DNA of 49,657 nucleotides from Octopus sinensis (Eukaryota), in NCBI RefSeq assembly GCF_006345805.1, contig NW_021834212.1:1-49657 (forward strand). Direction: 5' to 3'. Shown one piece after another: positions 8,244 through 38,140 of the stretch. Under the pieces are notes generated by a model that worked only from the letters and a program-made list of their open reading frames with translations, did not search any database and was not told where the DNA came from. Position 1 is the first letter of the stretch. Each line of letters starts with the position of its first letter. The translations under genes and the position numbers were made by a program.

Positions 8244-11200
8244 ATCATCATCATCATCATCATCATCATCATTTAACGTCCGCTTTCCATGCTAGCATGG
8301 GTTGGACGGTTCAACTGGTGTCTGGGGAGCCCGAAGGCTGCACCAGGCCAGTCAGATCTGGCAGTGTTTCTACAGCTGGATGCCCTTCCTAACGCCAACC
8401 ACTCCGAGAGTGTAGTGGGTGATTTTATGTGCCACCGACACAGGTGCCAGACGAGGCTGGCAGACGGCCACGCTCGGATGGTGTTTTTATGTGCCACCGA
8501 CACAGGTGCCAGACAAGGCTGGCAGACGACCACGCTCGGATGGTGTTTTTATGTGCCACCGACACAGGTGCCAGACAAGGCTGGCAGACGACCACGCTCG
8601 GATGGTGTTTTTTATGTGCCACCGACACAGGTGCCAGACGAGGCTGGCGAACGGCCATGCTCGGATGGTTTTTTTTATGTGCCACCGACACAGGTGCCAG
8701 ACGAGGCTGGCAGACGGCCACGCTCGGATGGTGTTTTTTATGTGCCACCGACACAGGTGCCAGACGAGGCTGGCGAACGGCCATGCTCGAATGGTGTTTT
8801 TATGTGCCACCGACACAGGTGCCAGACAAGGCTGGCAGACGACCACGCTCGGATGGTGTTTTTATGTGCCACCGACACAGGTGCCAGACGAGGCTGGCGA
8901 ACGGCCACGCTCGGATGGTGTTTTTTTATGTGCCACCGACACAGGTGCCAGACGAGGCTAGCGAACGGCCACGCTGGGATGGTGTTTTTATGTGCCACCG
9001 ACACAGGTGCCAGACAAGGCTGGCAGACGACCACGCTCGGATGGTGTTTTTATGTGCCACCGACACAGGTGCCAGACGAGGGTGGCGAACGGCCACGCTC
9101 GGATGGTGTTTTTTTATGTGCCACCGATACAGGTGCCAGACGAGGCTGGCGAACGGCCACGCTCGGATGGTGTTTTTATGTGCCACCGACACAGGTGCCA
9201 GACAAGGCTGGCAGACGACCACGCTCGGATGGTGTTTTTATGTGCCACCGACACAGGTGCCAGACGAGGCTGGCGAACGGCCATGCTCGGATGGTGTTTT
9301 TATGTGCCACCGACACAGGTGCCAGACAAGGCTGGCAGACGACCACGCTCGGATGGTGTTTTTATGTGCCACCGACACAGGTGCCAGATGAGGCTGGCGA
9401 ACGGCCACGCTCGGATGGTGTTTTTATGTGCCACCGACACAGGTGCCAGACAAGGCTAGCAGACGACCACGCTCGGATGGTGTTTTTATGTGCCACCGAC
9501 ACAGGTGCCAGACAAGGCTGGCGAACGGCCATGCTCGGATGGTGTTTTTATGTGCCACCGACACAGGTGCCAGACAAGGCTGGCAGACGACCACGCTCGG
9601 ATGGTGTTTTTATGTGCCACCGACACAGGTGCCAGACAAGGCTGGCAGACGACCACGCTCGGATGGTGTTTTTATGTGCCACCGACACAGGTGCCAGACG
9701 AGGCTGGCGAACGGCCATGCTCGGATGGTGTTTTTTTATGTGCCACCAATACAGGTGCCAGACGAGGCTGGCGAACGGCCACGCTCGGATGGTGTTTTTA
9801 TGTGCCACCGACACAGGTGCCAGACAAGGCTGGCAGACGACCACGCTCGGATGGTGTTTTTATGTGCCACCGACACAGGTGCCAGACAAGGCTGGCAGAC
9901 GACCACGCTCGGATGGTGTTTTTATGTGCCACCGACACAGGTGCCAGACGAGGGTGGCGAACGGCCACGCTCGGATGGTGTTTTTATGTGCCACCGACAC
10001 AGGTGCCAGACAAGGCTGGCAGACGACCACGCTCGGATGGTGTTTTTATGTGCCACCGACACAGGTGCCAGACGAGGCTGGCGAACGGCCATGCTCGGAT
10101 GGTGGTTTTTTGTGCCACCGACACAGGTGCCAGACAAGGCTAGCAGACGACCACGCTCGGATGGTGTTTTTTTTTATGTCCCACCGACACAGGAGCCAGA
10201 TTAGGCTGGCGATCGGCCACGATTGGATGGTGATTGTTACGTGCCCACAGCATGGAGGCCAGTCGGGCGGTTACTGGCTACGCCCACGTTCGGATGGTAT
10301 TCTTGTGTGCCACCGGCACTGGTACCACAAAGATACAAAATCCATTGATGTTCATCTATTTTGATTTTCACTTGCCTCAACAGTTCACTTGCCTCAACAG
10401 GTTTTCACAAGTGTCACAAGAAGGAAGGTATGCACAGGTGGACTGACTACGTCCTAGGTAGGGGCCACGGGTTATGGCCTGACTAGTCTTGCCGGGTCTT
10501 CTCACGCACAGCATACTTCCATAGGTCTCGTCTCTAGTTCATTTCCTTGGTGAGACCTAAAGTTCGTAGGTCGTGCTTCACCACTTCGTCCCAGTTTTCC
10601 TGGGTCTACCTCTTCCACAGGTTCCCTCATTGGCTAGGGTGTAGCACTTTTGCACACAACTATCTTCAGCCATTCTCGTCATATGACCATACCAGCGCAG
10701 CCGTCTTTCTTGCACACCACAACTGACGCTTCTTAGGTTCAACTTTTCTCTCAAGGTACTTACACTCTGACGATTATGAACACTGACATTACACATCCAT
10801 CGGAGCATACTGGCTTCATTTCTTGCGAGCTTACGCATATCCTCAGCAGTCACGGCCCATGTTTCACTACCATGTAGCATGGCTGTACGTACACATGCAT
10901 CATAAAGTCTGCCTTTTACTCTGAGCGAGAGGCCTTTTGTCACCAGCAGGGGTAAGAGCTCTCTAAACTTTGCCCAGGCTATTCTTACTCTAGCAGTCAC
11001 ACTTTCAGCACACCCACCCCCGCTACTAACTTGGTCTCCAAGGTAGCGGAAGCTATCAACTACTTCTAGTTTGTCTCCCTGGAACGCGGTAGAAGTTGGT
11101 CTCTGCACATTTCCAGGTTTATTTCTCCTGAGCATCTGCCACATACGAAAACTATCTTCCCAGTTAGCCTTCCTTTGACATTGCTGCACCTCTTATGTTC

Positions 11201-11550
11201 CATAGCTTACACTTGGTGCACCTTATAGAGTTTCTACCTACACCTTTTCTACAGATCGAGCAGGGCCATCTACCTGAAGTCGTTTGTGGTTGGTCCACCT
11301 TCCTACTTATTAGGACTTTGGTTTTGGCTAGGTTGATTCTAAGGCCCTTCGATTCTAATCCTTGTTTCCACACCTGAAACTTCTCCAGTTCTGATAGTGA
11401 CTCAGCAATTAGAGCAAGGTCATCAGCATATAGGAGCTCCCAGGGGCATCCTGTCTTAAATTCTTCCGTTATTGCCTGGAGGACTATGATAAATAGGAGG
11501 GGGCTGAGGACTGAACCTTGGTGGACCCCAACCTCTACCCGGAATTCTTC
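8244..11550 (-). mobile_element. 5'-truncated RTE-clade LINE: frameshifted RT C-terminal half, long 3' region with VNTR, (ATG)n tail
   Basis: Minus translation GVHQGSVLSPLLF...LLYADDLAL...FRYLG...LHGSETW...RRLRWYGH...GRGRPRKTW; (CAT)n on + strand at 8244-8272. Confidence 0.93.
8420..10330. repeat. 62-64 bp GC-rich VNTR inside the LINE 3' region, ~29 conserved + 2 degenerate units
   Basis: tttatgtgccaccgacacaggtgccagac(a/g)aggctggc...gctcggatggtg repeated; two largely alternating variants. Confidence 0.95.
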
Positions 11551-11585
<35 letters not shown>

Positions 11586-11664
11586 CATAAATAATAAATA
11601 CTATATATACACAGATACACATATATATATACATACACATATATAAATAAGAAATTATATATAT

Positions 11665-11710
<46 letters not shown>

Positions 11711-12205
11711 CATACATATACCCCATCCTTTATGCTTTCACTGGTATTTGATTGAACATGCTGCTGGAGTATCGTCTTGATGGGATTCTAATCAATCACA
11801 TCGACCCAAATAGTTCTCTCCTTATAGGTCTTATTTTATGGATATTTATTGATTGAATATAGATTTGCACTCATAGACAGACACAGATACATACATACAT
11901 GTGTGTATGTGTATGTCTAAGCACTTGTGTCTGTATAATAACTGGTGAAACTTTCAAAGTCACTATCAACCAATGGTAAAATAGATTTGGTATGCTAATA
12001 GGTGACCCTCAAATTAATGCTTGATTATTTTTATGTATAACGCTACACAAAAACAAACAATATTTGTAAATGTGTGTCAGTGTACATAATTATATATATA
12101 TATATATGTATATATATAAAGCCAAACATGAAAACACAAAGAGAAAACACAACGTGAGGACGTGGAACAAGTATAGTATTATTGGACGCTCAGGAAAGAA
12201 GGAGG

Positions 12206-14538: not shown

Positions 14539-16645
14539 TTGGGTTGTCTGGAAAGTTTGTGCCGATTGATAGTAGCTTGCCTTTTGACTTATTTTAGAAC
14601 ATGGTTGAGTCGATAAAATAGGATTTGACTACATCTCCATTTAGAGCACAGTTTAAGCTATCTTTTCGTGGAAGAAGGTTTATGTTCCTATAACCTGTGT
14701 TAATTCTGTAACCCTTTAAAATGGAAGATAAGAAAGTTCATTTTCGGTACTTGATGCTTTGGGAACCAGACAAAAATTGCTGCAGCTCGGCCGGGATGTG
14801 TTACCCCCACCCTCCATATTCACCAGATATTGCTCCTTCGGATTCCGACATATTCAGGTCTCTGCAGAATAGTCTTAATGGTAAAAATTTCAATTCCTTG
14901 GATGATGTAAAAAGATACCTTGATGAATTCTTTGCCATGAAACCACTCTCTTCAAACAACCTGACTTTCAGAGATCATCATTAAGTGACGAAAGAAATAT
15001 TGGGTTGTCCGGAAAGTTCTTGCCGATTTATAGTAGCTTACCTTTCGACTTCTTCTAGAACATGGTTGAATCCATAAAATAGGATTTGACTCCACCTCCA
15101 TTTAGAGCACAGTTTAAGCTATCTTTTCGTGGAAGAAGGTTTATGTTCCTATAATCTGTGTTAATTCTGTAACCCTTTAAAATGGAAGATAAGAAAGTTC
15201 ATTTTCGGCACTTGATGCTTTTCTGTAAAGGGAAAAATGCCTTACAAGCAACCAAAGAAATACACGCAGTTTACGGTGATGTTTCTTTATCCGAAAGAAC
15301 TGTATGGAAGTGGTTCGCAAGGTTCCGAGCTGGAGATTGTAGCCTTATTGATAAAGAGCAATCAGGCAGACCATCCACTACAGATGATGACCAAATCAAG
15401 TCATTAACTGAGAATAGCCCACATTGCACAACCCGAGAATTGGCAGAAAGCCTCAACCTATCAAAATCCGTTGTTCATAAGCACATGGTAAAGCTTGGGT
15501 ACATGAATCACTACGATGTTTGGGTACCACATGAGTTGAGTGAGAAGAACTTTTTGGATGGCATTTCCATCTGTGATTCGCTTTATAAACGGAAAGAAAA
15601 CGTGCCTTTTTTAGATCAAATTGTGACAGGTGATGAGAAATGGATTATCTACCGAAATGTTCAGAGAAAGTGATCCTGGAGTAAGCGACATGAGCCACCC
15701 TTAGCCACCCCAAAAGCAGGTCTTCACCCAAAAAAAGTCTTGCTTTGTGTCTGGTGGGATTGGAAAGGAATTCTGTACTCGTAACCAGACAATTCTGAGA
15801 AATACTGCACACAACTGGACGAGTTAAAAGCAGCAATTCCGGAGAAACGTCCAGAATTGGCCAACAGGAAGGGTGTTGTTTTCCAACATGATAATGCAAG
15901 ACCACACATTTCTTTGGGAACCAGACAAAAATTGCTGCAGCTCGGCTGAGATGTGTTACCCCCACCCTCAATATTCACCAGATATTGCTCCTTCAGATTT
16001 CCACTTATTTCTTATTTATATTAGGTTGTCTGGAAAGTTTGTGCCGATTTATAGTAGCTTACCTTTCGACTTATTTTAGAACATGGTTGAGTCGATAAAA
16101 TAGGATTTGACTACACCTCCATTTAGAGCAGAGTTTAAGCTATCTTTTCGTGGAAGAAGGTTTATGTTCCTAAAACCTGTGTTAATTCTGTAACCCTTTA
16201 AAATGGAAGACAAGAAAGTTCATTTTCGGCACTTGATGCTTTGGGAACCAGACAAAAATTGCTGTAGCTCGGCTGGGATGTGTTACCCCACCCTCCATAT
16301 TCACCAGATATTGCTCCTTCGGATTTCCACTTCTTTCTTATTTTTATTAGGTTGTCCGGAAAGTTTGTGCCGATTTATAGTAGCTTACCATTCGACTTAT
16401 TTTAGAACATGGTTGAGTCCCTAAAATAGGATTTGACTACACCTCCATTTAGAGCACAGTTTAAGCTATCTTTTCGTGGAAGAAGGTTTATGTTCCTATA
16501 ACCTGTGTTAATTCTGTAACCCTTTAAAATGGAAGACAAGAAAGTTCATTTTCGGCACTTGATGCTTTGGGAACCAGACAAAAATTGCTGCAGCTCGGCT
16601 GAGATGTGTTACCCCACCCTCCATATTCACCAGATATTGCTCCTA
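14539..16645 (+). mobile_element. Four head-to-tail mariner left-end copies (starts 14539, 15000, 16021, 16347)
   Basis: Each begins TT(G/A)GGTTGTC(C/T)GGAAAGTT after TA, then shares a leader and MEDKKVHFR; no right TIR seen. Confidence 0.9.
15182..16010 (+). pseudogene. Mariner (DD34D-type) transposase pseudogene
   Basis: WVPHEL, GDEKW, HDNARPH and YSPDIAPSD motifs, with stops and frameshifts. Confidence 0.92.
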
Positions 16646-24549: not shown

Positions 24550-24579
24550 CTCCCCCTGCCGCACCAGGTGGTTTTTTGG
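24550..24579 (-). CDS. 30-nt phase-1 microexon, (A)KKPPGAAGG, of an unidentified gene
   Basis: tttgttttactttataattctAG|CCAAAAAACCACCTGGTGCGGCAGGGGGAG|GTGAGT; same length, phase and GGAG|GTGAGT end as the other two. Confidence 0.7.
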
Positions 24580-24719
24580 CTAGAATTATAAAGTAAAACA
24601 AAAACAAACCAAAAATTAAGGAGTACAGGTGGAGTAACTTTAGGAATGCAGGGAAAATAATATAAAAAATACAGGTAAGGTTATAAAGAAAGCAGGTAAA
24701 ATTATACAAAGAGTACAGG

Positions 24720-27100
24720 TAAAATAATATTTGGAGTACAGGTAAATAATAGGAGGAGTAGAAGTAAAACGAAATAAGAAATGCAGGTAAAATTATATGG
24801 AGATTACAGGTAAAAATAATATTGGGAGTACAGGTAAATAGTAGGAGGAGTAGAGGTGAAACGAAATAAGAAATGCAGGTAAAATTATTTGGAGATTACA
24901 GGTAAAAATAATATTGGGAGTACAGGTAAATAGTAGGAGGAGTAGAGGTGAAACGAAATAAGAAATGCAGGTAAAATTATATGGAGATTACAGGTAAAAA
25001 TAATATTGGGAGTACAGGTAAATAGTAGGAGGAGTAGAGGTGAAACAAAATAAGAAATGCAGGTAAAATTATATGGAGATTACAGGTAAAAATAATATTG
25101 GGAGTACAGGTAAATAATAGGAGTAGAGGTGAAACGAAATAAGAAATGCAGGTAAAATTATATGGAGATTACAGGTAAAAATAATATTGGGAGTACAGGT
25201 AAATAATAGGAGAGTAGAGGTGAAACGAAATAAGAATGCAGGTAAAATTATATGGAGATTACAGGTAAAATAATATTGGGAGTACAGGTAAATAATAGGA
25301 GGAGTAGAGGTGAAACGAAATAAGAAATGCAGGTAAAATTATATGGAGATTACAGGTAAAATAATATTGGGAGTACAGGTAATAGTAGGAGGAGTAGAGG
25401 TGAAACAAAATAAGAAATGCAGGTAAAATATATGGAGATTACAGGTAAAAATAATATTGGGAGTACAGGTAAATAGTAGGAGGAGTAGAGGTGAAACAAA
25501 ATAAGAAATGCAGGTAAAATTATATGGAGATTACAGGTAAAAATAATATTGGGAGTACAGGTAAATAATAGGAGGAGTAGAGGTGAAACGAAATAAGAAA
25601 TGCAGGTAAAATTATATGGAGATTACAGGTAAAAATAATATTGGGAGTACAGGTAAATAGTAGGAGGAGTAGAGGTGAAACAAAATAAGAAATGCAGGTA
25701 AAATTATATGGAGATTACAGGTAAAAATAATATTGGGAGTACAGGTAAATAGTAGGAGGAGTAGAGGTGAAACAAAATAAGAAATGCAGGTAAAATTATA
25801 TGGAGATTACAGGTAAAAATAATATTGGGAGTACAGGTAAATAGTAGGAGGAGTAGAGGTGAAACAAAATAAGAAATGCAGGTAAAATTATATGGAGATT
25901 ACAGGTAAAAATAATATTGGGAGTACAGGTAAATAGTAGGAGTAGAGGTGAAACAAAATAAGAAATGCAGGTAAAATTATATGGAGATTACAGGTAAAAA
26001 TAATATTGGGAGTACAGGTAAATAGTAGGAGGAGTAGAGGTGAAACAAAATAAGAAATGCAGGTAAAATTATATGGAGATTACAGGTAAAAATAATATTG
26101 GGAGTACAGGTAAATAATAGGAGTAGAGGTGAAACGAAATAAGAAATGCAGGTAAAATATATGGAGATTACAGGTAAAAATAATATTGGGAGTACAGGTA
26201 AAATAGTAAGGAGTAGAGGTGAAACAAAATAAGAAATGCAGGTAAAATTATATGGAGATTACAGGTAAAAATAATATTGGGAGTACAGGTAAATAGTAGG
26301 AGGAGTAGAGGTGAAACAAAATAAGAAATGCAGGTAAAATTATATGGAGATTACAGGTAAAAATAATATTGGGAGTACAGGTAAATAGTAGGAGGAGTAG
26401 AGGTGAAACAAAATAAGAAATGCAGGTAAAATTATATGGAGATTACAGGTAAAAATAATATTGGGAATACAGGTAAATAATAGGACTAGAGGTGAAACGA
26501 AATAAGAAATGCAGGTAAAATTATATGGAGATTACAGGTAAAAATAATATTGGGAGTACAGGTAAATAATAGGAGGAGTAGAGGTGAAACGAAATAAGAA
26601 ATGCAGGTAAAATTATATGGAGATTACAGGTAAAAATAATATTGGGAGTACAGGTAAATAGTAGGAGGAGTAGAGGTGAAACAAAATAAGAAATGCAGGT
26701 AAAATTATATGGAGATTACAGGTAAAAATAATATTGGGAGTACAGGTAAATAGTAGGAGGAGTAGAGGTGAAGCGAAATAAGAAATGCAGGTAAAATTAT
26801 ATGGAGATTACAGGTAAAAATAATATTGGGAGTACAGGTAAATAGTAGGAGTAGAGGTGAAACAAAATAAGAAATGCAGGTAAAATTATATGGAGATTAC
26901 AGGTAAAAATAATATTGGGAGTACAGGTAAATAGTAGGAGGAGTAGAGGTGAAGCGAAATAAGAAATGCAGGTAAAACTATATGGAGATTACAGGTAAAA
27001 ATAATATTGGGAGTACAGGTAAGTAGGAGGAGTACAGGTGAAACAAAATAAGAAATGCAGGTAAAATTATATGGAGATTACAGGTAAAAATAATATCAAG
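24720..27100. repeat. 92-bp satellite (~26 copies) built from four ~23-bp (C/G)AGGT(A/G)AA sub-repeats; degenerate monomers on both flanks
   Basis: atgcaggtaaaatt at 24781, 24873, 24965 (period 92). Confidence 0.95.
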
Positions 27101-27311
27101 AGTAGAAGTGAAAGGAGTACACGGAAAATAATGTCAAGAATACAGGTAATTTTTAGTGAGGAGTATAGGTAAGATAATATTAGGAGTACAGGTTAAAGAG
27201 TACATTGGGGAGGAGTACAGCTAAAAGACATCAGGAGTACAAGTAAAGGAGGGAGAAAATAATGAGGAGTACAGGTAATAATGATATTAGAAGTTCAGGT
27301 AAAAATGAATA

Positions 27312-27550
27312 TTGGGTTAGTGCGTAATTATTGCTGATTTTTTTAACATTTTATTCAACAAAAACAATAACATGTAACATAAAAAACATCTTTAAATGAT
27401 TATTCTGGAGCATATTCACCATCTACTTCAATTACTGCTTCCCATTTGCTTGGCAGACGGTCAGACCATGATTTAAAGATGTTTTTGTTAAATTTTGTTA
27501 TTGTTTTTGTTGAATAAAATTTGTTGAACAAAAGCGCAATAATTATGTAC
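27312..27550 (-). mobile_element. Mariner-derived miniature fold-back element
   Basis: TA|TTGGGTTAGTGCGTAATTATTGC terminus; ~85-bp inverted arms; centre encodes DRLPSKWEAVIEVDGEYAPE* on minus (mariner-like C-terminus). Confidence 0.7.
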
Positions 27551-27842
27551 CGGCAAGGCATGCAGCTAAAAGAGTATAAAGAATACAGGTAAAATAATAT
27601 GGAGAAGATGATTAAAAAATATCAGGTGTGCAAATAAAGGAGTAGAGGTATGTGAAAATAACTCTAACTAAAGTGAAACTGACATAAAACAACAACAAAA
27701 ACAACAGGATAAACATTTCAGTTTGTCATTTAAGACATTCATTTGTGATGTCTTAAACAAGAACTTATGATGTCATATGTTACGACATAACATATCGTAA
27801 TATAACTTACATTATATCAAATGTGGCATATACATGTATATA

Positions 27843-28218
27843 CACTTGCGTCAGAAATTAATTAGCACTTCTCAAATTTCTACATTAAATAGGTTAAATC
27901 AATTAACCTATGAGCTGTTCAAAACATCTTACGCGATGAGAAAACTTAGTATGGTGTGATTTCGGTCCTTGCGAGGCGCTACCTATATCTATTAAACAAA
28001 GGAAGTTTGTCTGCATCCGCACTCCAAGTTGTTGCACTGCTATGTCAACATCATAAGGCTGTAGACTCTCAAACTGCTCTGCAAACAAAGTTACGTCATC
28101 GTTCTGCGCAACAGTGAACTCGCAACAAAGCAATAGTTCGAGATATGGCCACTAGGTGACAGCACATACCTTGAGTGAAGAGCAAATCAAGGGTGCTAAT
28201 TAATTTCTGACGGTAGTG
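27843..28218. mobile_element. Tc1/mariner-type MITE
   Basis: TA|CACT(TG/AC)CGTCAGAAATTAATTAGCAC 26-bp TIRs, TA on both sides. Confidence 0.85.
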
Positions 28219-28340
28219 TATATTAGAAGTTTTGGAGATGATGTACAGGTATTATATATTAGAAGAAATGAGGTACTCAGAAATCTGGATGGGTTTATAT
28301 TTACAGATATTTATTAATATGTCACATGTTTTTATAAATC

Positions 28341-28385
28341 ATATATTAGCGCTTGCGTCCACTCTAGTGGAGTCGTCAGATGTGT
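28341..28385 (-). ncRNA. Decayed minimal hammerhead motif
   Basis: Minus: acat-CTGACGA-ctccac taga gtggac-GCAA-GCGC-TA/atat; GAAA mutated, palindromic stem III. Confidence 0.4.
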
Positions 28386-28386
28386 A

Positions 28387-28710
28387 TCATCATCATCGTT
28401 TAACGTCCGCTTTCCATGCTAGCATGGGTTGGACGAGTTTGACTGAGGTCTGGCGAACCAGATGGCTACACCAGACTCCAATCTTGGTTTGGCAGAGTTT
28501 CTACAGCTGGATGCCCTTCCTAACGCCAACCACTCCGAGAGTGTAGTGGGAGCATTTTACATGCCACCGGCATGGGGGCCAGTCAGGTGGTACTGGCAAC
28601 GACCTCGCTCGAATCTTTTACACATGCCACCAGCACAGGTGCCAGTAAGGTGACGTTGGTAACGATCATGCTCGAATGGTGCCCTTTTACATGCCACTGG
28701 CACGGAAGCC
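28387..28710 (-). mobile_element. Stand-alone RTE 3' module with diverged VNTR units (other copies at ~28875-29065, 29338-29485, 41155-41345 +, 41898-42255, 48121-48570)
   Basis: (CAT)n-cgtttaacgtccgctttccatgctagcatgggttgg...ctggatgcccttcctaacgccaac. Confidence 0.85.
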
Positions 28711-29485
28711 AATATATTATCCATATATCTACTGTCTGACTATATAATGAAATGACTGGTTATTTATAGCAAAATCTGGTGTTTTAACCTGCCATGAAAT
28801 ATTCTGAGGTGTAGTCTGTTTATTATGTTACAGCACATTTATATTTATGGGTGTGTATGTATGTGTGTATCGTAATCATCATCATCCTTTAATGTCCATC
28901 TGCCATACTGGCCTGAGTTGGACAATTTGACAGGAGCAGGCAAGCCAGAGGACTGCACCAGACTTCATTGTCTGTTTTGACATGGTTTTTATGGTTGGAT
29001 GCCCTTCCTAACACCAGCCACTATACAGAATGTACTGGGTGCATTTTATATGGCACCAGCACTGGCAGTATATATACAGATGGGAAAAATGTTGCCATTT
29101 TATATTTCTAATTTCACGCATGTTCATTGTTTGTTTTTGATTTTGTCAGCTATACAGTATTGTAGGATCAGTTGGGCACTGTTTCTGAGAAAACCAGCAG
29201 CATGACGCAATTCACTCTGCCAGAAATTTGAGAATGACATGCCGTACTGCTTGGTATTCATGTCAGAAGCTCCAATACAAACATTTCAGAGTGTTTGGGT
29301 GTCAATTTGAGGACAGTGCAATCTGAGGAAATGTACTATCATCATCATCATCATCGTTTAACATCCGCTTTCCATGCTGGCATGGGTTGGATGGTTCAAC
29401 TGGGGTCTGGGAAGCCAGAAGGCTGCACCAGGCCCAGTCTGATCTGCCAGTGTTTCTACAGCTGGATGCCCTTCCTAACGCCAAG

Positions 29486-29625
29486 AGTGATAAAAATCCA
29501 ACATCATGGTGTTTGTACTGATCGCTAGTGATGGCAACATTGTACCTCCATTCATCTTCCCACACATCTTCAGACTCAAAATGAAGGCCTACATCAAGTG
29601 CCTGGAGGAAGTAGTGCTGTCCCTT
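29486..29625 (+). pseudogene. Tc1/mariner superfamily (maT/DD37D-like) transposase fragment; likely 5' part at ~29070-29337
   Basis: IMVFVLIASDGNIVPPFIFPHIFRLKMKAYIKCLEEVVL. Confidence 0.65.
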
Positions 29626-29914
29626 GAGAGCATGGATTATTCCTAGCATGTAACTTTTCTAATGACAATACTTCCAAACATGATGTATGCTTAATTTCTT
29701 GAACTTTGGTAATGTGGTTCCAGTACCATTTCTTGCTTTCGTATCCACAATCTTCAGGAACCTTTCTTGAGGAAATTCTAACCAGTTCCATCTGCTTCAA
29801 AGTTATCGGTGATTTAAGTGATGATAAGTCACAGAGCTGAGGACATGTGGCTTCATGGTTCGGGTCTTTAACCCACAATCACCCACAATCATAATGTCAT
29901 GAGTTAAGATTGGG

Positions 29915-30263
29915 AGTCAAAGAAACAGAGGACCTAATTGTAGCAGCCCAAGATCAAGCAAAAAAGATCAATAAAAAACAAGCAACTTGAGAAAAAATAT
30001 ATATGGAAAGAATGTGGTACTTGGAATGAGACAGTGGCACATGTTGTGGGAGAATGCTCCAAGTTGACACAGGAAGAATAAAAGAAATGGAAGCATAACC
30101 AGGCTGTAAAAGTCTTATACTGGAAACTGCACCAGAAATAGGGATTTGAAGCTGGAAACTCATGGTACAATCACCAAGTCAAAAGAGTTCTAGAGTTGGA
30201 GAAATGTAAGATTTTGTGGGACTTTCCTATTCAAATGGACAAGAAATTAGAAAATAATAGACC
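29915..30263 (+). mobile_element. R4/Dong-type (RLE endonuclease) LINE C-terminal fragment
   Basis: KETEDLIVAAQDQA...ETVAHVVGECSKL...HN...LYWKL...KILWDFPIQMDKKLENNRP. Confidence 0.8.
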
Positions 30264-30660
30264 AGGAGTGGCTGTGTGGTAAGTAGCTTGCTAACCAACC
30301 ACATGGTTCCGGGTCCAGTCCCACTGCGTGGCATCTTGGGCAAGTGTCTTCTGCTATAGCCCCGGGCCGACCAATGCCTTGTGAGTGGATTTGGTAGACG
30401 GAAACTGAAAGAAGCCCGTCGTATATATGTATATATATATAAGTGTGTGTGTATATGTTTGTGTGTCTGTGTTTGTCCCCCTAGCGTCGCTTGACAACCG
30501 ATGCTGGTGTGTTTACGTCCCTGTCACTTAGCGGTTCAGCAAAAGAGACCGATAGAATAAGTACTGGGCTTACAAAGAATAAGTCCCGGGGTCGAGTTGC
30601 TCGACTAAAGGCGGTGCTCCAGCATGGCCGCAGTCAACTGACTGAAACAAGTAAAGGAGT
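30264..30660 (+). mobile_element. SINE family A
   Basis: Full-length match. Confidence 0.9.
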
Positions 30661-30695
30661 ATATATATACAAAATACATACATGCATATGTGTGT

Positions 30696-30734
<39 letters not shown>

Positions 30735-30737
<3 letters not shown>

Positions 30738-30902
30738 CTTTACTACCCACAAGGGGCTAAACATAGGGGACAAACAAGGACAGACAAACGGATTAAGCCG
30801 ATTACATCGACCCAAGTGCAATACTGGTACTTTATTTATCGACCCCGAAAGGATGAAAGGATGAAAGTCGACCTCGGCGGAATTTGAACTCAGAACGTAG
30901 CG
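30735..30902 (-). mobile_element. SINE family B, 5'-truncated
   Basis: Matches 24025-24190. Confidence 0.85.
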
Positions 30903-31459
30903 ATATATATATATATATATATAAATGTCTCCACTGTCATGTTTTTGTTATCAATGTTGATCCTCTGCAAATCCCTAATTTTATTTTGATTTGCGGGAGC
31001 AACCGCCTTTTGAAACCTCATATTGTCGTTAAATGCTCGAAATGAGGAGTAGATGGATAGCTGACAACTGATGAAGGGTCGTTCTTTATGTTACTTGTCT
31101 TGTTTTCCATTTGTTTATCTCGTTGCTTGCTTTCCCAAGTTTGTCTTCGTACTTCATGTTGTTTACGTTTTGTGATGCCCTGTACCCATATATGCATATA
31201 TATATATGAATATACATGGTGGCTGCCCCCCCCCTCGTTATCAAGTATGGCCATTGCACGAAACTTAATCAATGTTGCCATCGTGCAATGCCTATGCAAG
31301 AAGATTTTTTTAAAGGAGGAAAGGCTGTGCACTGAGTCAATCCCACTCACTAAGCAACAGCAGCCATAATCCGAAAAGAAGAACAAGTCAACATCATTGG
31401 TAACCGCTGAGCCACAGGTTTTATGTCGGAGTTATCCCAGTTACCTGAGTATAACATTC

Positions 31460-31795
31460 TTGCTCACAACATCGTAAGTGGAAAGTGTAACCTCTCGAAA
31501 GAGCTGTTCTTCACTCCTGCTCCAGAGCGTAGGCTGCGGGGACACTCCGAAAAGCTCTATCTGCGATGATTTCATCTCAATCGAAGGAGAGGGGCTTTCT
31601 CCGTCCGGGTTGCGGATCTGTGGAATAAGCTGCCGGACGAGATAGTGAAGATGCCGACGACCGCTCGGTTCAAAGTCTCCCTTGACCACAAATGGCCTGA
31701 ACCCTTTGCATGAACTCCACCCTGTACATAACTCCATGTCCCCCTACATGGCCTTGCTTTTTGCTTTTTGAGCCAAAAAATTAACTAACTAACTA
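31460..31795 (+). mobile_element. CR1-clade LINE 3' end, (TAAC)n tail
   Basis: RLRGHSEKL...RRGAFSVRVADLWNKLPDEIV...FKVSLD; second copy at 43915-44258. Confidence 0.88.
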
Positions 31796-32346
31796 CCTTC
31801 TCCTAGAAAGATTCCCTAACAAAAGCTAGGAGTCCTTCACTCCCAATGGTTTAACCACGCGATCGGGTATTCAGTCCAATTATTTCTATGTCCCCGTGCA
31901 TGATACAGCTTTAAGACATTTATTGGATGGTCGTTGACTCTCAAGAGTTCCTCCACCCTTTGACGGGTTTTGTTTTTCCTCCCGCAGGGTGTCCAATAAA
32001 CACCTTCCCCACCAAGCAAGCTTGGTGGGGTTGCAGGTTTAGTCGCCGATGACCTGACCATGCAACAGGTTGTACTGGGTTACATGTTACCAGTAGCACT
32101 CGAAAGTGACCATGTATGTATATACATACATACATGAACCCAGAACTATGTGGTTGGTAAGCAAGCTACTTAGCACACAGCCACTCCTGCGCCTATTTAT
32201 TATCACCTTGTTATGTGACTGACCAGATGACCAGACTCACAGATGTTGTTACACATCACTGGTCACAATGCTTTTTTTACATTGTTTTAGCTTTCGAATG
32301 ATGCCACCCAACTAACTAGGCAAGCAGGCCAACAATTCCCCCCTGA

Positions 32347-33074
32347 TTAACCCTTTCGTTACTGTATTTCTGTTGAGATGCCCTGTATTTCTTTCAATTA
32401 TTTTAGATAAAAGAAAGAATTTAGTAAAATGAATTAGTTATCATTAAGCTGGTGTTAGGAACATAAATTGTGACTAAGGTTTGGTGGAAGATTTTAATTC
32501 AGAACTTTTGAAAAGACATTTGTACTCAGAGCCAGAGGCAGTTTCCGCTGGGCTGGTATCAAAAGGGTTAAGAATTGTTTCTCTATTATATATCTTAACC
32601 TTTTTGTTACCATATTTCTGCTGAGATGCTCTGTGTTTCTTTCGATTACGTTAAATATAACAAAGAATTTAGTAAAATAACTTAGTTATCATTCAGCTAG
32701 TGTTAGGAACATAAATTGTGATAAGGTTTGGTGGAAGATTTTTAATTCAAAACTTATGAAAACAAGACATTTGTACTGGAAGCCAGAGCCGGCTTCAGCC
32801 GGATTGGTATCAAAAGGGTTAAGAATTGTTTCTCTATTATATATCTTAACCCTTTTGTTACCATATTTCTGCTGAGATGCTCTGTGTTTCTTTCAATTAC
32901 TTTAAATATAACAAAGAATTTAGTAAAATAACTTAGTTATCATTCAGCTAGTGTTAGGAACATAAATTGTGAGTAAAGTTTGGTGGAAGATTTTAATTCA
33001 AAACTTATGAAAACAAGACATTTGTACTAAAGAGCCAGAGCCGGTTTCAGCCGGGTTAGTAATGAAAGGGTTAA
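32347..33074. mobile_element. Three tandem piggyBac-type MITEs (~220 bp each)
   Basis: TTAA|CC(C)TTT...AAAGGG|TTAA at 32347-32571, 32595-32822, 32846-33074; identical 23-bp spacers. Confidence 0.85.
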
Positions 33075-33278
33075 AGGGGGGAGTGGAGAAACATGAAATG
33101 AATGCACTGTCTGGTCTGAGAATTGGACCTATAACTTATGATTGTAAGTCAGAATTGTGTTTCAAAGTGAAGTGATGATTTGAACAACAGGAACAACTAA
33201 AATAATGTCTACAACAACAGCAACAACAATATTAATTGCATGATGAACATTACGCAGTGTTTGCGCTGCTAGACTCAC

Positions 33279-33308
33279 CTCCTGAGGACGCGCCACTTCT
33301 TGACTTGC
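33279..33308 (-). CDS. 30-nt phase-1 microexon, (G)KSRSGASSG
   Basis: tttttgctatttcattgctcAG|GCAAGTCAAGAAGTGGCGCGTCCTCAGGAG|GTGAGT; paralogue of 37466-37495. Confidence 0.8.
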
Positions 33309-33762
33309 CTGAGCAATGAAATAGCAAAAATTAAAAAAAATAATAATAGATAAATAAATAAATAAATAAATAAAATTCACTGTCATGTGACTGTTTTTAC
33401 TGTCATGTAAATATTTGCAGTAGGCTGTGGTTAGAAGCTTGCTCCCAGACACATGGTTCCAGGTTCAGTCCTGCTACATGGCACCTTGGGCAAGAGTCTT
33501 CTACTATAGCCTCGAGTCAACCAAAGCCTTGTGAGTGGATTTGGTAGGTGGAAACTGAAAGAAGCCTGTTGTGCATATATATATATATATATTTTTTTTT
33601 ATATAGTTCTATATTTAAGAGATGAGGAATTATGTGCATTATTTAAGGGCCTTGGGGAAGGAAAAGGCTAAGGGTGTTGTGTGGCAAGAGTCAAGACACC
33701 CCCTGCGAGAATAGACTTGACCGAATGACTATAAATAGTAGTGGTCTTAGAGAGACAGAGTA

Positions 33763-34386
33763 CCGTAAATCCTCGAATATAATCCGCACTTTTTCCCCAA
33801 AATTTAAAGGTCAAAATCCCTAGTGCGTATTATACACTAGGTTAAAAATGAAAAATATTTTCTAAGCAATGTCTGAGTCTCTATTTGCTGTCCGGCAATG
33901 TTTATTCAGACGCATTTTGTGATGTTGGGCGCGAAAATACCTTAAGCTAAGCCTGAAAGCAATGAAGTCATAAAAGAATCATCCATAACTTGCAATAAGC
34001 AACATTCATTAAACGTTATTACTGTTATTTCTTTATTTTCTGCAAACAAAATGCACAAAAAAGCTACACGTTTGCATTATGTTATATATACAATAATAAT
34101 AAAGGACATTACTGTATACATTTTAAAAAACCAAGGACGTTATATAGACCTTCTTGACTGAAGTTAGAGAAGGGGTGCGTATTATACACAAGGTTTAGGT
34201 TTTTCAGAGGTACAGTCCCCTAAAAATCCCCTGCATATTATACACAAGGTTTAGGTTTTTCAGAGGTACAGCCCCCTAAAAATCCCCTGCGTATTATACA
34301 CAAGGTTTAGGTTTTTCAGAGGTACAGCCCCCTAAAAATCCCCTGCGTATTATACTCAAGGGCGGACTATACTCGAGGATTTACGG
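33763..34386. mobile_element. Tc2/pogo-like MITE with a subterminal 54-bp unit repeated 3 times
   Basis: TA|CCGTAAATCCTCGA(A/G)TATA(A/G)TCCGC TIRs, TA on both sides. Confidence 0.85.
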
Positions 34387-34749
34387 TAGGGGTTAATTGC
34401 AGAAATTCATAAGGTGTTGTTTTGGTAGTTGTCAGAATATCATTTGTTGGTTTATGTATAGTTTGTTGGATTGTTACGTTGTTGTCACCCTATTTCATTA
34501 TATATTTTATTGTTACTACGGGGTTATAGTGTAAAAAAAGGTATCGTCATAACAATTGAATGCAACATATAGCTGACCATGGCCAAAGACATGTTTAGGC
34601 AAGAACAGCCCCACTTTATCAAATGTCTGCCCTTGTGATTTACCGATAGACATTGCGTATGGCTATCAATAAACTAGTTTCTTTCTAAAGTGACTGGCAA
34701 GTTTGGGATGCACATGCATTAAGTGATAGGTGATATACAAAAGTTAGTT

Positions 34750-35415
34750 CAATTAAAACAAATTACTTTCCACTATGCACTCATGACCACCCCATCAGAA
34801 CATCACCCCTCTGCTAAAAGTATATTCCTAACTCTCCACTATATCATTACATTCAACTAACCACATAATAAATATTACGTTTTCCCCCACCACATGTCAT
34901 GGACACTTCTCTCTTCCTCTTCTTCCTCTCTCTTTCTGCTTCAATTAAAATAAATTACTTTCCACTATGCACTCACGACGACGACGACACCACCACCATC
35001 ATCATCATCATCATCTCTCTCCTCTCTTTAATCTCACCATCAGAACATCACCCCTCTGCTAAAAGTATATTCCTAACTCTCCACTATATCATTACATTCA
35101 ACTAACCACATAATAAATATTTCGTTTCCCTCTACCACATATCATGGACACTTCTCTCTCCCTCTTCTTCCTCTCTCTTTCTGCTTCAATTAAAACAAAT
35201 TACTTTCCACTATGCACTCACGACCACCACCACCATCATCATCATCATCTCTCTCTCTAATCTCGCCATCAGAACATCACCCCTCTGCTAAAAGTATATT
35301 CCTAACTCTCCACTATATCATTACATTCAACTAACCACATAATAAATATTACGTTTCTCCCTACCACATATCATGGACACTTCTCTCTCCCTCTTTTTCT
35401 TTCTCTCTTTCTGCC
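34750..35415. repeat. ~190-245 bp tandem triplication
   Basis: caattaaaa(c/t)aaattactttccactatgcactca at 34750, 34942, 35187. Confidence 0.9.
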
Positions 35416-36257
35416 TCACCCTTTGCCTTATCCTTTTTTTCTCCTCTTTTCTTTCTCCCTCTTTTTCTTTAACCATGTGAAAGCGTTACTGGTGGGCTAA
35501 GTAATGCAATGACAAGCAGAATTATTATAAGGGAAAAATTTGACAAGTCAGTCAGTCACCAGCTGACACTCGCTGACGATATATCGAAGAGGCCAGGGAA
35601 CAGAAGAAAGAAGTAGAAAGAAGACATGCACTCAACACCAGAGCTGAAGACACCTCCGAAAGAGGGGGGATGCCACGTCAAAACGGTAGAGGAGTAGGGG
35701 CTGAAACTGGACGTGGTTCCTCCTGATGATGTCTTGAGCTAACTGGATCCTATAAAGGAGCTGTTGTGGTAGCAGACTACGAAACACGGTTGTAATTCCT
35801 TCTGAGTTCTGCTAGATTCTTAGAATCCAATCACTTCTATCTTGTGTGTGTATATGTACACATATACACACATGCATGACACACACACACACACACACAC
35901 ATATGGGATTTGTGGCTGCATCAACCTGTCTGCTATTTGGCCAGTTGGGTATCAAAGGCTGCAGGAAAACTGCCACAATTAAAAGCTTGTCTGTTGTTGC
36001 TGAAAAGAGCTCAATGTGGATCTGGGTGAGAAGCAATAGTTCCTGGTTCAGTCTCACAGTGTGACACCTTGGGCAAGTGTCTTCTAGTATAGCCTCGAGC
36101 CAACCAAAGCCTTGAGAGTGACTTTGGTAGAGGGAAACTGAAAGAAACCTGTCATATACATTATATATATATATATATATATATACACATGTGTGTCTGT
36201 GTCTTTGTGTCTGTCCCTCCACCACCACTTGACAATTGGTGTTGGTGTGTTTATGTC

Positions 36258-37074
36258 AGTTGATACCATCTCTGGCAAGGGCTTTGAAATAAAACCAAGA
36301 AGAAGTTCCAGACACCCAGCTGAATACTTGACAGACACTGACTTTGCTGACGACATCGCTCTTATCAGTGATTCTCTCTCCAATGCCCAGTCTCTTTTAC
36401 AATCTCTCGAACAAGCCTCAAATTGTGTAGGTCTTTACCTCAATGAGGCCAAGACTGAATACTTAAACAAGTGCCTGTCCAACAGTGATTGCATCATCCA
36501 TACTCTCAACAATGCGCCCTTAAATATGTTTTCTGGAAAAGATTTTCTAACTAGAAAGGGTATGGCCTGGTCAGCCTGTAATGACATGCATAAGATCTAG
36601 TCATCAAATCTAAGTAGAGACTTCAAACTTGAAATCTTCAAAGCCACAGTTGAACCAATTCTACTATATGGCTCAGAAACCTGGACGTTATCAAAGAAGC
36701 TTGAGAGGCGGTTGGATGGAACCTACACTCGCCTCCTTATGAGAGCTCAAAATCTCTCGTGGAAGCGTCATCAAACCAAAGTACAAATATAGGGGAAACT
36801 ACCACCTGTGTCATCTCTTGTGAAAGGTAGGAGAGTCCAGTTTGCTGGACATTGTTGTAGAGCTGAAAACGAGACAATTTCTACTCTTCTCCTCTGGAAG
36901 CCATCTACCCGCAATACCAGAGGGTGCACACTCTCCTACCCTGATGTAATCTCCAGGGATACAGGCATCCAGCAACAGGACCTCCGTAATGCCATGATGG
37001 ACCATAAAGTCTGGCGTAACATAGTAAATTCCATTGTCTCGACCATGGTTGAACAATGATGATGATGATGATGA
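36258..37074 (+). mobile_element. RTE-type LINE 3' fragment (distinct family) inserted in a SINE-A (36035-37265); 7-bp TSD; (TGA)n tail
   Basis: DTDFADDIALIS...LLYGSETW...RRVQFAGHC; ttatgtc at 36251-36257 and 37075-37081. Confidence 0.88.
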
Positions 37075-37465
37075 TTATGTCCCCATCACTTAGCAGTTTC
37101 GCAAAAGAGACTGATAGAATAGGTACTGGGTTTTCAAAAAAAAAAAAAAATCAAGTCCTGGAATCCTGGGGTCAATTTGTTCAACTAAAACTTTAAAAAA
37201 AAAAAACACTTCAAGGCAGTGCCCCAGCATGGCCACAGTCAAACGCCTGAAACAGATAAAAGGTAAATCACACACACACACACACATACGACTACATGTA
37301 TATAGAATAGAATAGAATGCAGGAGACGTGAGTGACCAGAATGACCAGAACAAGAAGGTCCCTAAAAAATTGAAGTGACAAACAACTAAAAGAGCAACTA
37401 CAACAACGAAAATAACAACACTAAAAACCAATGCTACGCATTGTTTGCCGCGCAGCTAGACTCAC

Positions 37466-37495
37466 CTCCAGATGCAGCACCACTTCGCGATTTGC
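37466..37495 (-). CDS. 30-nt phase-1 microexon, (G)KSRSGAASG
   Basis: tttttgctatttccttgcgcAG|GCAAATCGCGAAGTGGTGCTGCATCTGGAG|GTGAGT; 7 of 8 differences from 33279-33308 are synonymous. Confidence 0.8.
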
Positions 37496-37570
37496 CTGCG
37501 CAAGGAAATAGCAAAAATAATAAAAAGAGAAAAAGTAAAAAAAAAAAACAAAAACAAAACAATTATATAT

Positions 37571-38140
37571 AGGTGCAGGAGTGGCTGTGTGGTAAGTAGC
37601 TTGTTTACCAACCACATGGTTTTGGGTTCATTCCCACTGCGTGGCACCTTGGGCAAGTGTCTTCTACTATAGCCTCGGGCCGACCAATGCCTTGTGAGTG
37701 GATTTGGTAGACGGAAACTGAAAGAAGCCTGTCGTATATATGTATATATATGCAGGAGTGGCTGTGTGGTAAGTAGTTTGCTAACCAACCACATGGTTCC
37801 GGGTTCATTCCCACTGCGTGGCACCTTGGGCAAGTGTCTTCTACTATAGCCTCGGGCCGACCAAGGCCTTGTGAGTGGATTTGGTAGATGGAAACTGAAA
37901 GAAGCCTGTCATATATATATATGTGTGTGTATGTGTTTGTGTCTCTGTGTTTGTCCCCCCAGCATTGCCTGACAACCGATGCTGGTGTGTTTATGTCCCC
38001 CGTTACTTAGCGGTTCTGCAAAAGAGACCGATAGAATAAGTACTGGGCTTACAAAGAATAAGTCCCGGGGTCGAGTTGCTCGACTAAAGGCGGTGCTCCA
38101 GCATGGCCGCAGTCAAATGACTGAAACAAGTAAAAGAGTA
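37571..38140 (+). mobile_element. SINE-A 5' half followed by a full SINE-A
   Basis: Heads at ~37572 and ~37752. Confidence 0.9.

Follow-up and report, generated by a model that had tools for sequence, protein, structure and literature searches.

Introduction

Neural microexons that depend on the eMIC domain (SRRM3/4, or SRRM234 in invertebrates) are short and frame-preserving, with a long AG-free acceptor that carries UGC and with conserved flanks. In flies and mammals alike, the AG exclusion zones of such exons are long and a UGC lies near the 3' splice site, according to one study (10.1101/2021.02.24.432780), and another places UGC in 74–79% of SRRM3/4 targets (10.1101/2024.09.17.613571). 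The exclusive tandem exons of Mhc, 14-3-3zeta and Dscam1 are homologous, equal in length and phase, and duplicated together with their flanks; one account describes tandem duplication as often linked with a mutually exclusive choice that works by competition between structures (PMC9013439). A row of small exons can also tune one protein region, as do the three microexons of RPS24. The small exons mI and mII of Drosophila Ubx do the same. Here we describe three candidate exons of 30 nt (e1, e2, and e3, in gene order) on the minus strand of NW_021834212.1, a 49,657-nt contig of Octopus sinensis (assembly GCF_006345805.1) that was analysed at its full length and is called the window below. We tentatively favour a reading in which e1 and e2 are additive, neuron-enriched cassettes under one regulator, and e3 is included independently.

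Compared by sequence alone, e1 and e2 are like eMIC microexons in all of the features named above, and the regulator domain appears to be encoded in this octopus genome; unlike them, e1 and e2 measure 30 nt rather than 3–27 nt, have very strong splice sites, and occur as two tandem-duplicated copies. A length of 30 nt fits the MicroExonator definition, under which a microexon is internal and no longer than 30 nt (PMC7821500), and falls outside the 3–27 nt definition. With Mhc, 14-3-3zeta, and Dscam1, e1 and e2 share homology, length, phase, tandem order, and duplicated flanks, but they are far shorter, encode near-identical peptides, and show neither a docking site in the window nor any visible enforcement of choice. 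Closer at hand are the Octopus cassettes in the first loop of PMCA and in the CaMKII linker, which are likewise short, lie in low-complexity loops, and combine additively; their sequences differ from e1–e3, and they are not duplicates of one another. The RPS24 exons are unequal in length, and neither they nor the Ubx exons have been shown to be related in sequence to e1–e3.

The e1–e3 peptides did not occur in the literature searched. Nor was this locus described in work on octopus microexons, cephalopod exon duplication, or tandem microexons, as represented by listings and the openings of abstracts, and no cephalopod eMIC target turned up in these searches. A 20-species study includes Octopus bimaculoides, and its supplements may list these exons (10.64898/2026.09.05.749416).

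Three 30-nt segments with unusually strong splice signals lie on one strand

Re-reading the sequence, we recovered all three segments of the original prediction on the minus strand, e1 at 37466..37495, e2 at 33279..33308, and e3 at 24550..24579. Each is 30 nt long, follows a pyrimidine tract that ends in YAG, and closes with GGAG directly before the donor GTGAGT. The phase-1 peptides KSRSGAASG (e1), KSRSGASSG (e2), and KKPPGAAGG (e3), which lie between split codons, were likewise reproduced; the first residue of e1 hinges on an unseen upstream exon. The acceptor of e1 scores 10.0 and its donor 7.7, and its GC content is 0.57 versus 0.23 upstream. If joined, the segments would be separated by an e1–e2 intron of 4,157 nt (33309..37465, minus strand), which holds fragments of short and long interspersed nuclear elements (SINE and LINE), and by an e2–e3 intron of 8,699 nt (24580..33278, minus strand).

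A splice-site scan of the window placed e1, e2, and e3 at ranks 1–3 among 11 minus-strand candidates. Thresholds (acceptor ≥ 8, donor ≥ 6, length ≤ 60 nt) were set afterwards so as to admit e1–e3. With these, 8 candidates came from 100 block shuffles together and none of them was 30 nt long, the plus strand of the window gave none, and four other loci (530 kb) gave none on either strand. The same thresholds drop real short exons at those four loci, so the scan speaks to unusual site strength and not to sensitivity. The segments are not part of a high-copy repeat: a DNA search of the genome returned e1 and e2 only, and two degenerate patterns derived from e1–e3 matched only e1–e3 in 2.72 Gb (reversed controls, 0). 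Scanning metagenomes with such patterns gave 2 matches, both without splice sites, which we take as chance.

e1 and e2 have diverged in the manner of coding exons

As first reported, 8 of the 30 nt are different between e1 and e2, 6 of them third and 2 of them first codon positions. One first-position change is synonymous (CGA/AGA); the other lies in a GCA/TCC codon, which also contains one of the six third-position changes and is the site of the sole residue change (A/S). The tally is 7 synonymous versus 1 non-synonymous difference, and the proportions of synonymous and non-synonymous sites that differ (pS and pN) are 0.89 and 0.05. Of 200,000 simulated draws of 8 random substitutions, 0.18% gave no more than one changed residue in any frame, and 6 residues change when e1 and e2 are read in either of the other two frames. 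This fixes phase 1 for e1 and e2. Their synonymous sites are saturated, hence the duplication is old. On these statistics, the excess of pS over pN and the codon-periodic divergence argue for purifying selection on coding, frame-preserving exons, in agreement with the original prediction. The segments are very probably coding exons.

The flanks of e1 and e2 are conserved and resemble eMIC-type contexts

The similarity of the intronic flanks of e1 and e2, proposed from a short stretch next to the donors, is real and extends further than claimed, over ~30 nt upstream and 100–115 nt downstream. Close to the exons, 20 of 22 nt on the acceptor side and 12 of 13 nt on the donor side are identical, whereas only 3 of 9 third positions within the exons are equal. 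Because the flanks are conserved while synonymous sites are saturated, the intron elements are also constrained. This pattern suggests that e1 and e2 were selected for both their peptide and their splice context.

Upstream of e1, an AG-free pyrimidine tract of ~90 nt (37496..37585, minus strand) bears UGC at -18 and -7, and the proximal acceptor of e2 (33309..33330, minus strand), which includes the 20 identical positions, has UGC at the same two places. The nearest upstream AG is at -91 in e1 and at -73 in e2, which leaves AG-free acceptors of ~90 and ~70 nt. In both acceptors, UGC hence stands near the 3' splice site and inside a long AG-free tract, as in eMIC-dependent exons; e3 does not share this. 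A branch-point consensus (YTRAY) is found at -26 in e2. On the other side, the donors and the downstream elements that e1 and e2 have in common span 37366..37465 and 33164..33278, respectively (minus strand). A small hairpin may form downstream of the donors, with a fold that is not significant (z = -1.4, at e1, and -0.1). Within the window, the best docking partner for the shared element scored -29.4 in a crude comparison with 12 shuffles that ranged from -25.7 to -33.4, and a second test gave -26.1 versus -23.4 to -30.8; a docking site could lie off the contig.

For the regulator, an SRRM_C match above cut-off was obtained on contig C11337 (11165-11311, minus strand), and the phase at the end of this exon fits that of a last exon on contig C2298 (from 1408 onward, plus strand). 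Abalone records exist both with and without this end. Judging from phase and from these molluscan records, the octopus genome appears to encode both eMIC exons of SRRM234. The two exons sit on separate unplaced contigs, and a scan of the 44.6-kb C11337 found no other SRRM234 exon.

e3 is probably an older paralogue of e1 and e2

Over its first 26 nt, e3 is equal to e1 at 15 positions (P = 5e-4) and to e2 at 12 (P = 0.03). Its comparison with e1 carries no signal in the ratio of non-synonymous to synonymous change (pS 0.36, pN 0.38), and its flanks align with those of e1 and e2 at scores of 49 and 36, versus 178 for e1 with e2. We conclude that e3 is probably an older paralogue, and it would be read in phase 1 because it resembles e1 and e2. 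There is no UGC within 70 nt of its AG. A 92-nt minisatellite lies upstream (24686..27096, minus strand), and its units, read on the gene strand, are rich in pyrimidines with hardly any AG; from 24600 to 27300, AG occurs 4 times in 2,701 nt, as against 51 per kb strand-wide. Standing just before the e3 acceptor, the minisatellite could affect 3' splice-site choice.

The host gene probably extends beyond the contig

The window is the complete unplaced contig C10683 of a 2.72-Gb genome in 13,516 contigs, and repeats cover at least 78% of it by a crude mask. A Pfam search of 124 open frames (all 93 on the minus strand, 27 of 92 on the plus strand, and 4 long frames) yielded reverse-transcriptase and mariner fragments over or near cut-off and one sub-threshold MBD match. 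The former are broken LINE-type reverse-transcriptase and mariner transposase fragments at 11167-11787 (minus strand), 36142-36597 (plus strand), and 15173-15946 (plus strand). The MBD match (31840-32079, minus strand; 17.3 bits versus a cut-off of 21) is likely chance or a repeat fragment. An Rfam scan of the window and a PDB search with two 21-aa queries both gave 0 matches. With only transposon matches from open frames across a whole unplaced contig, the host cannot be identified from the window, as had been anticipated. No further host exon was detected within the contig, whether in the 12 kb upstream of the segments or in the 24.5 kb that follow them. The window ends revealed no overlap with another contig, in searches of which two were dominated by repeats and one was single copy, and the window does not overlap the first 40 kb of two contigs with neighbouring numbers. 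One of the latter, C10684, carries several strong exons on its minus strand, with no link to the window seen; one of these exons holds what we take to be Ets-like sequence.

We chose host candidates by resemblance, and five of them were rejected. Among 1,768 matches to the CaMKII linker, none of the best 120 carried the e1–e3 peptides. The PMCA first loop has an assembly gap in a phase-1 intron, yet none of 120 matches has the peptides, nor does any of 19 additional members of the cluster. At that locus (C11:60365420-60425466), the gap falls between a 36-nt and a 30-nt phase-1 cassette. In the genome, loop 1 of non-muscle myosin II has its own exons and no gap in 50 kb, and the single gap in muscle myosin is outside the loop-1 interval. 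A candidate 18-nt exon (SKELNL) lies 3' of the non-muscle loop-1 exon, at C2:186515221 (minus strand). NCX on C6 has no gap in 290 kb, in a test that covered this one of four NCX-like loci. For SRRM234 itself, a weak test returned 8 matches, 0 from Octopus and 0 with the peptides, and a search for CLASP returned one weak match, to another gene.

CaMKII and PMCA exons of this genome are 99–100% identical to Octopus records, in which the 36- and 30-nt phase-1 cassettes of PMCA and the 3- and 6-residue inserts of CaMKII are additive across annotated isoforms. Both genes carry additive cassettes of their own, so a short phase-1 cassette in a linker is nothing unusual in Octopus.

The same searches brought up other loci. 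At C18:39824026 and C18:39825798 (plus strand), two candidate microexons of 21 nt in phase 0 (SLKKDKE and SMKKDKE) are nearly identical and lie 1.8 kb apart, with strong acceptors and with the first 11 donor bases as in e1 and e2; the pair looks like a recent local duplication. The unplaced contigs C8851, C8703, C688, C1302, C2502, and C8597 carry compact, short-intron genes of the myosin, P-type ATPase, and CaMKII-like kinds, unlike the chromosomal copies, and may be DNA that reached the assembly from another eukaryote.

Discussion

We propose that e1, e2, and e3 are symmetric phase-1 coding exons that share one transcript of one large octopus gene, whose remaining exons would lie on other contigs. 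In neurons, eMIC-bearing SRRM234 is predicted to add e1 and e2. These two would be co-included rather than exchanged, because both seem to answer the same regulator; e3, without UGC, would be included independently, perhaps always. A probably disordered Lys/Ser/Arg/Gly/Ala linker would then be lengthened in 10-residue steps, with an effect that may come from linker length and charge or from extra serine phosphorylation sites. Introns of 4.2 and 8.7 kb pose no steric block to joint use of e1, e2, and e3. In a stricter version, which we regard as doubtful, a microexon was copied along with its whole eMIC-type cassette and the linker acts as a stepwise rheostat, neuronal SRRM234-eMIC, as its activity rises, adding 0, 10, or 20 basic, phosphorylatable residues to a fixed third unit.

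Several points weigh against additive eMIC-type cassettes. The proposed linker role is read from composition alone, and the peptides were found in 0 of 259 proteins of the candidate families. A branch-point consensus is missing from the 150 nt next to e1. UGC is a 3-nt motif, e1 and e2 are not independent, and 30 nt exceeds the 3–27 nt microexon class. The donors of e1 and e2 are consensus, unlike the weak 5' sites of fly eMIC exons (10.1101/2021.02.24.432780). All three segments have stronger sites than real short exons of PMCA and MHC (7.4/4.9 and 12.5/3.9), and in mouse the strongest splice signals mark constitutive microexons (PMC7821500). These last observations, with the consensus donors, the long pyrimidine tracts, and the resemblance of e3 to e1, would suit constitutive use of all three exons, in which exon duplication produced a fixed three-unit decapeptide repeat (x-K-x-x-x-G-A-x-x-G) and the flanks secure recognition among long introns. 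We think this rather unlikely, given that the UGC pair and the downstream element were kept in e1 and e2 despite saturated synonymous sites and that e3 has neither.

Mutually exclusive use, with one of two or three exons chosen so as to swap A/S or SRS/KPP and with the shared downstream element as a selector that pairs with a docking site, is what equal length, same phase, homology, and tandem order would lead one to expect. However, no docking partner within the window did better than the shuffles, introns of this size impose no steric or frame enforcement, the frame is kept with any number of units, and e1 and e2 have common cis elements and products that differ by one residue; we judge it improbable. 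A reading of e1–e3 as non-coding or dead sequence (decayed exons, exons of a long non-coding RNA, or a chance duplication) would agree with the missing host exon and peptides, but hardly with codon-periodic divergence, intact splice sites, and single copy, and is very unlikely. It is highly improbable that e1 and e2 are real exons and e3 is part of a different transcript or resembles them by chance: poor flank alignment and the want of a selection signal with e1 speak for this, whereas strand, length, donor, the K..GA..G pattern, the identity with e1, and the failure of shuffles to produce any 30-nt candidate speak against it. On balance, the sequence evidence inclines towards a reading of e1 and e2 as additive cassettes of the eMIC type, and their very strong splice sites also allow constitutive use, an option absent from the original prediction.

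The locus illustrates how an assembly loses exons, with the segments alone on an unplaced contig and two exons of the regulator gene SRRM234 in a like position. Its biological weight is limited without the host gene, and in Octopus short cassettes in linkers are common. If spliced as predicted, e1 and e2 would offer a ready test of two questions: whether the bilaterian eMIC programme is at work in the nervous system of the octopus, and whether microexon duplicates are additive or mutually exclusive. The stepwise rheostat, if true, would provide a cephalopod eMIC target and a case in which tandem exon duplication gives additive dosage, not exclusive choice.

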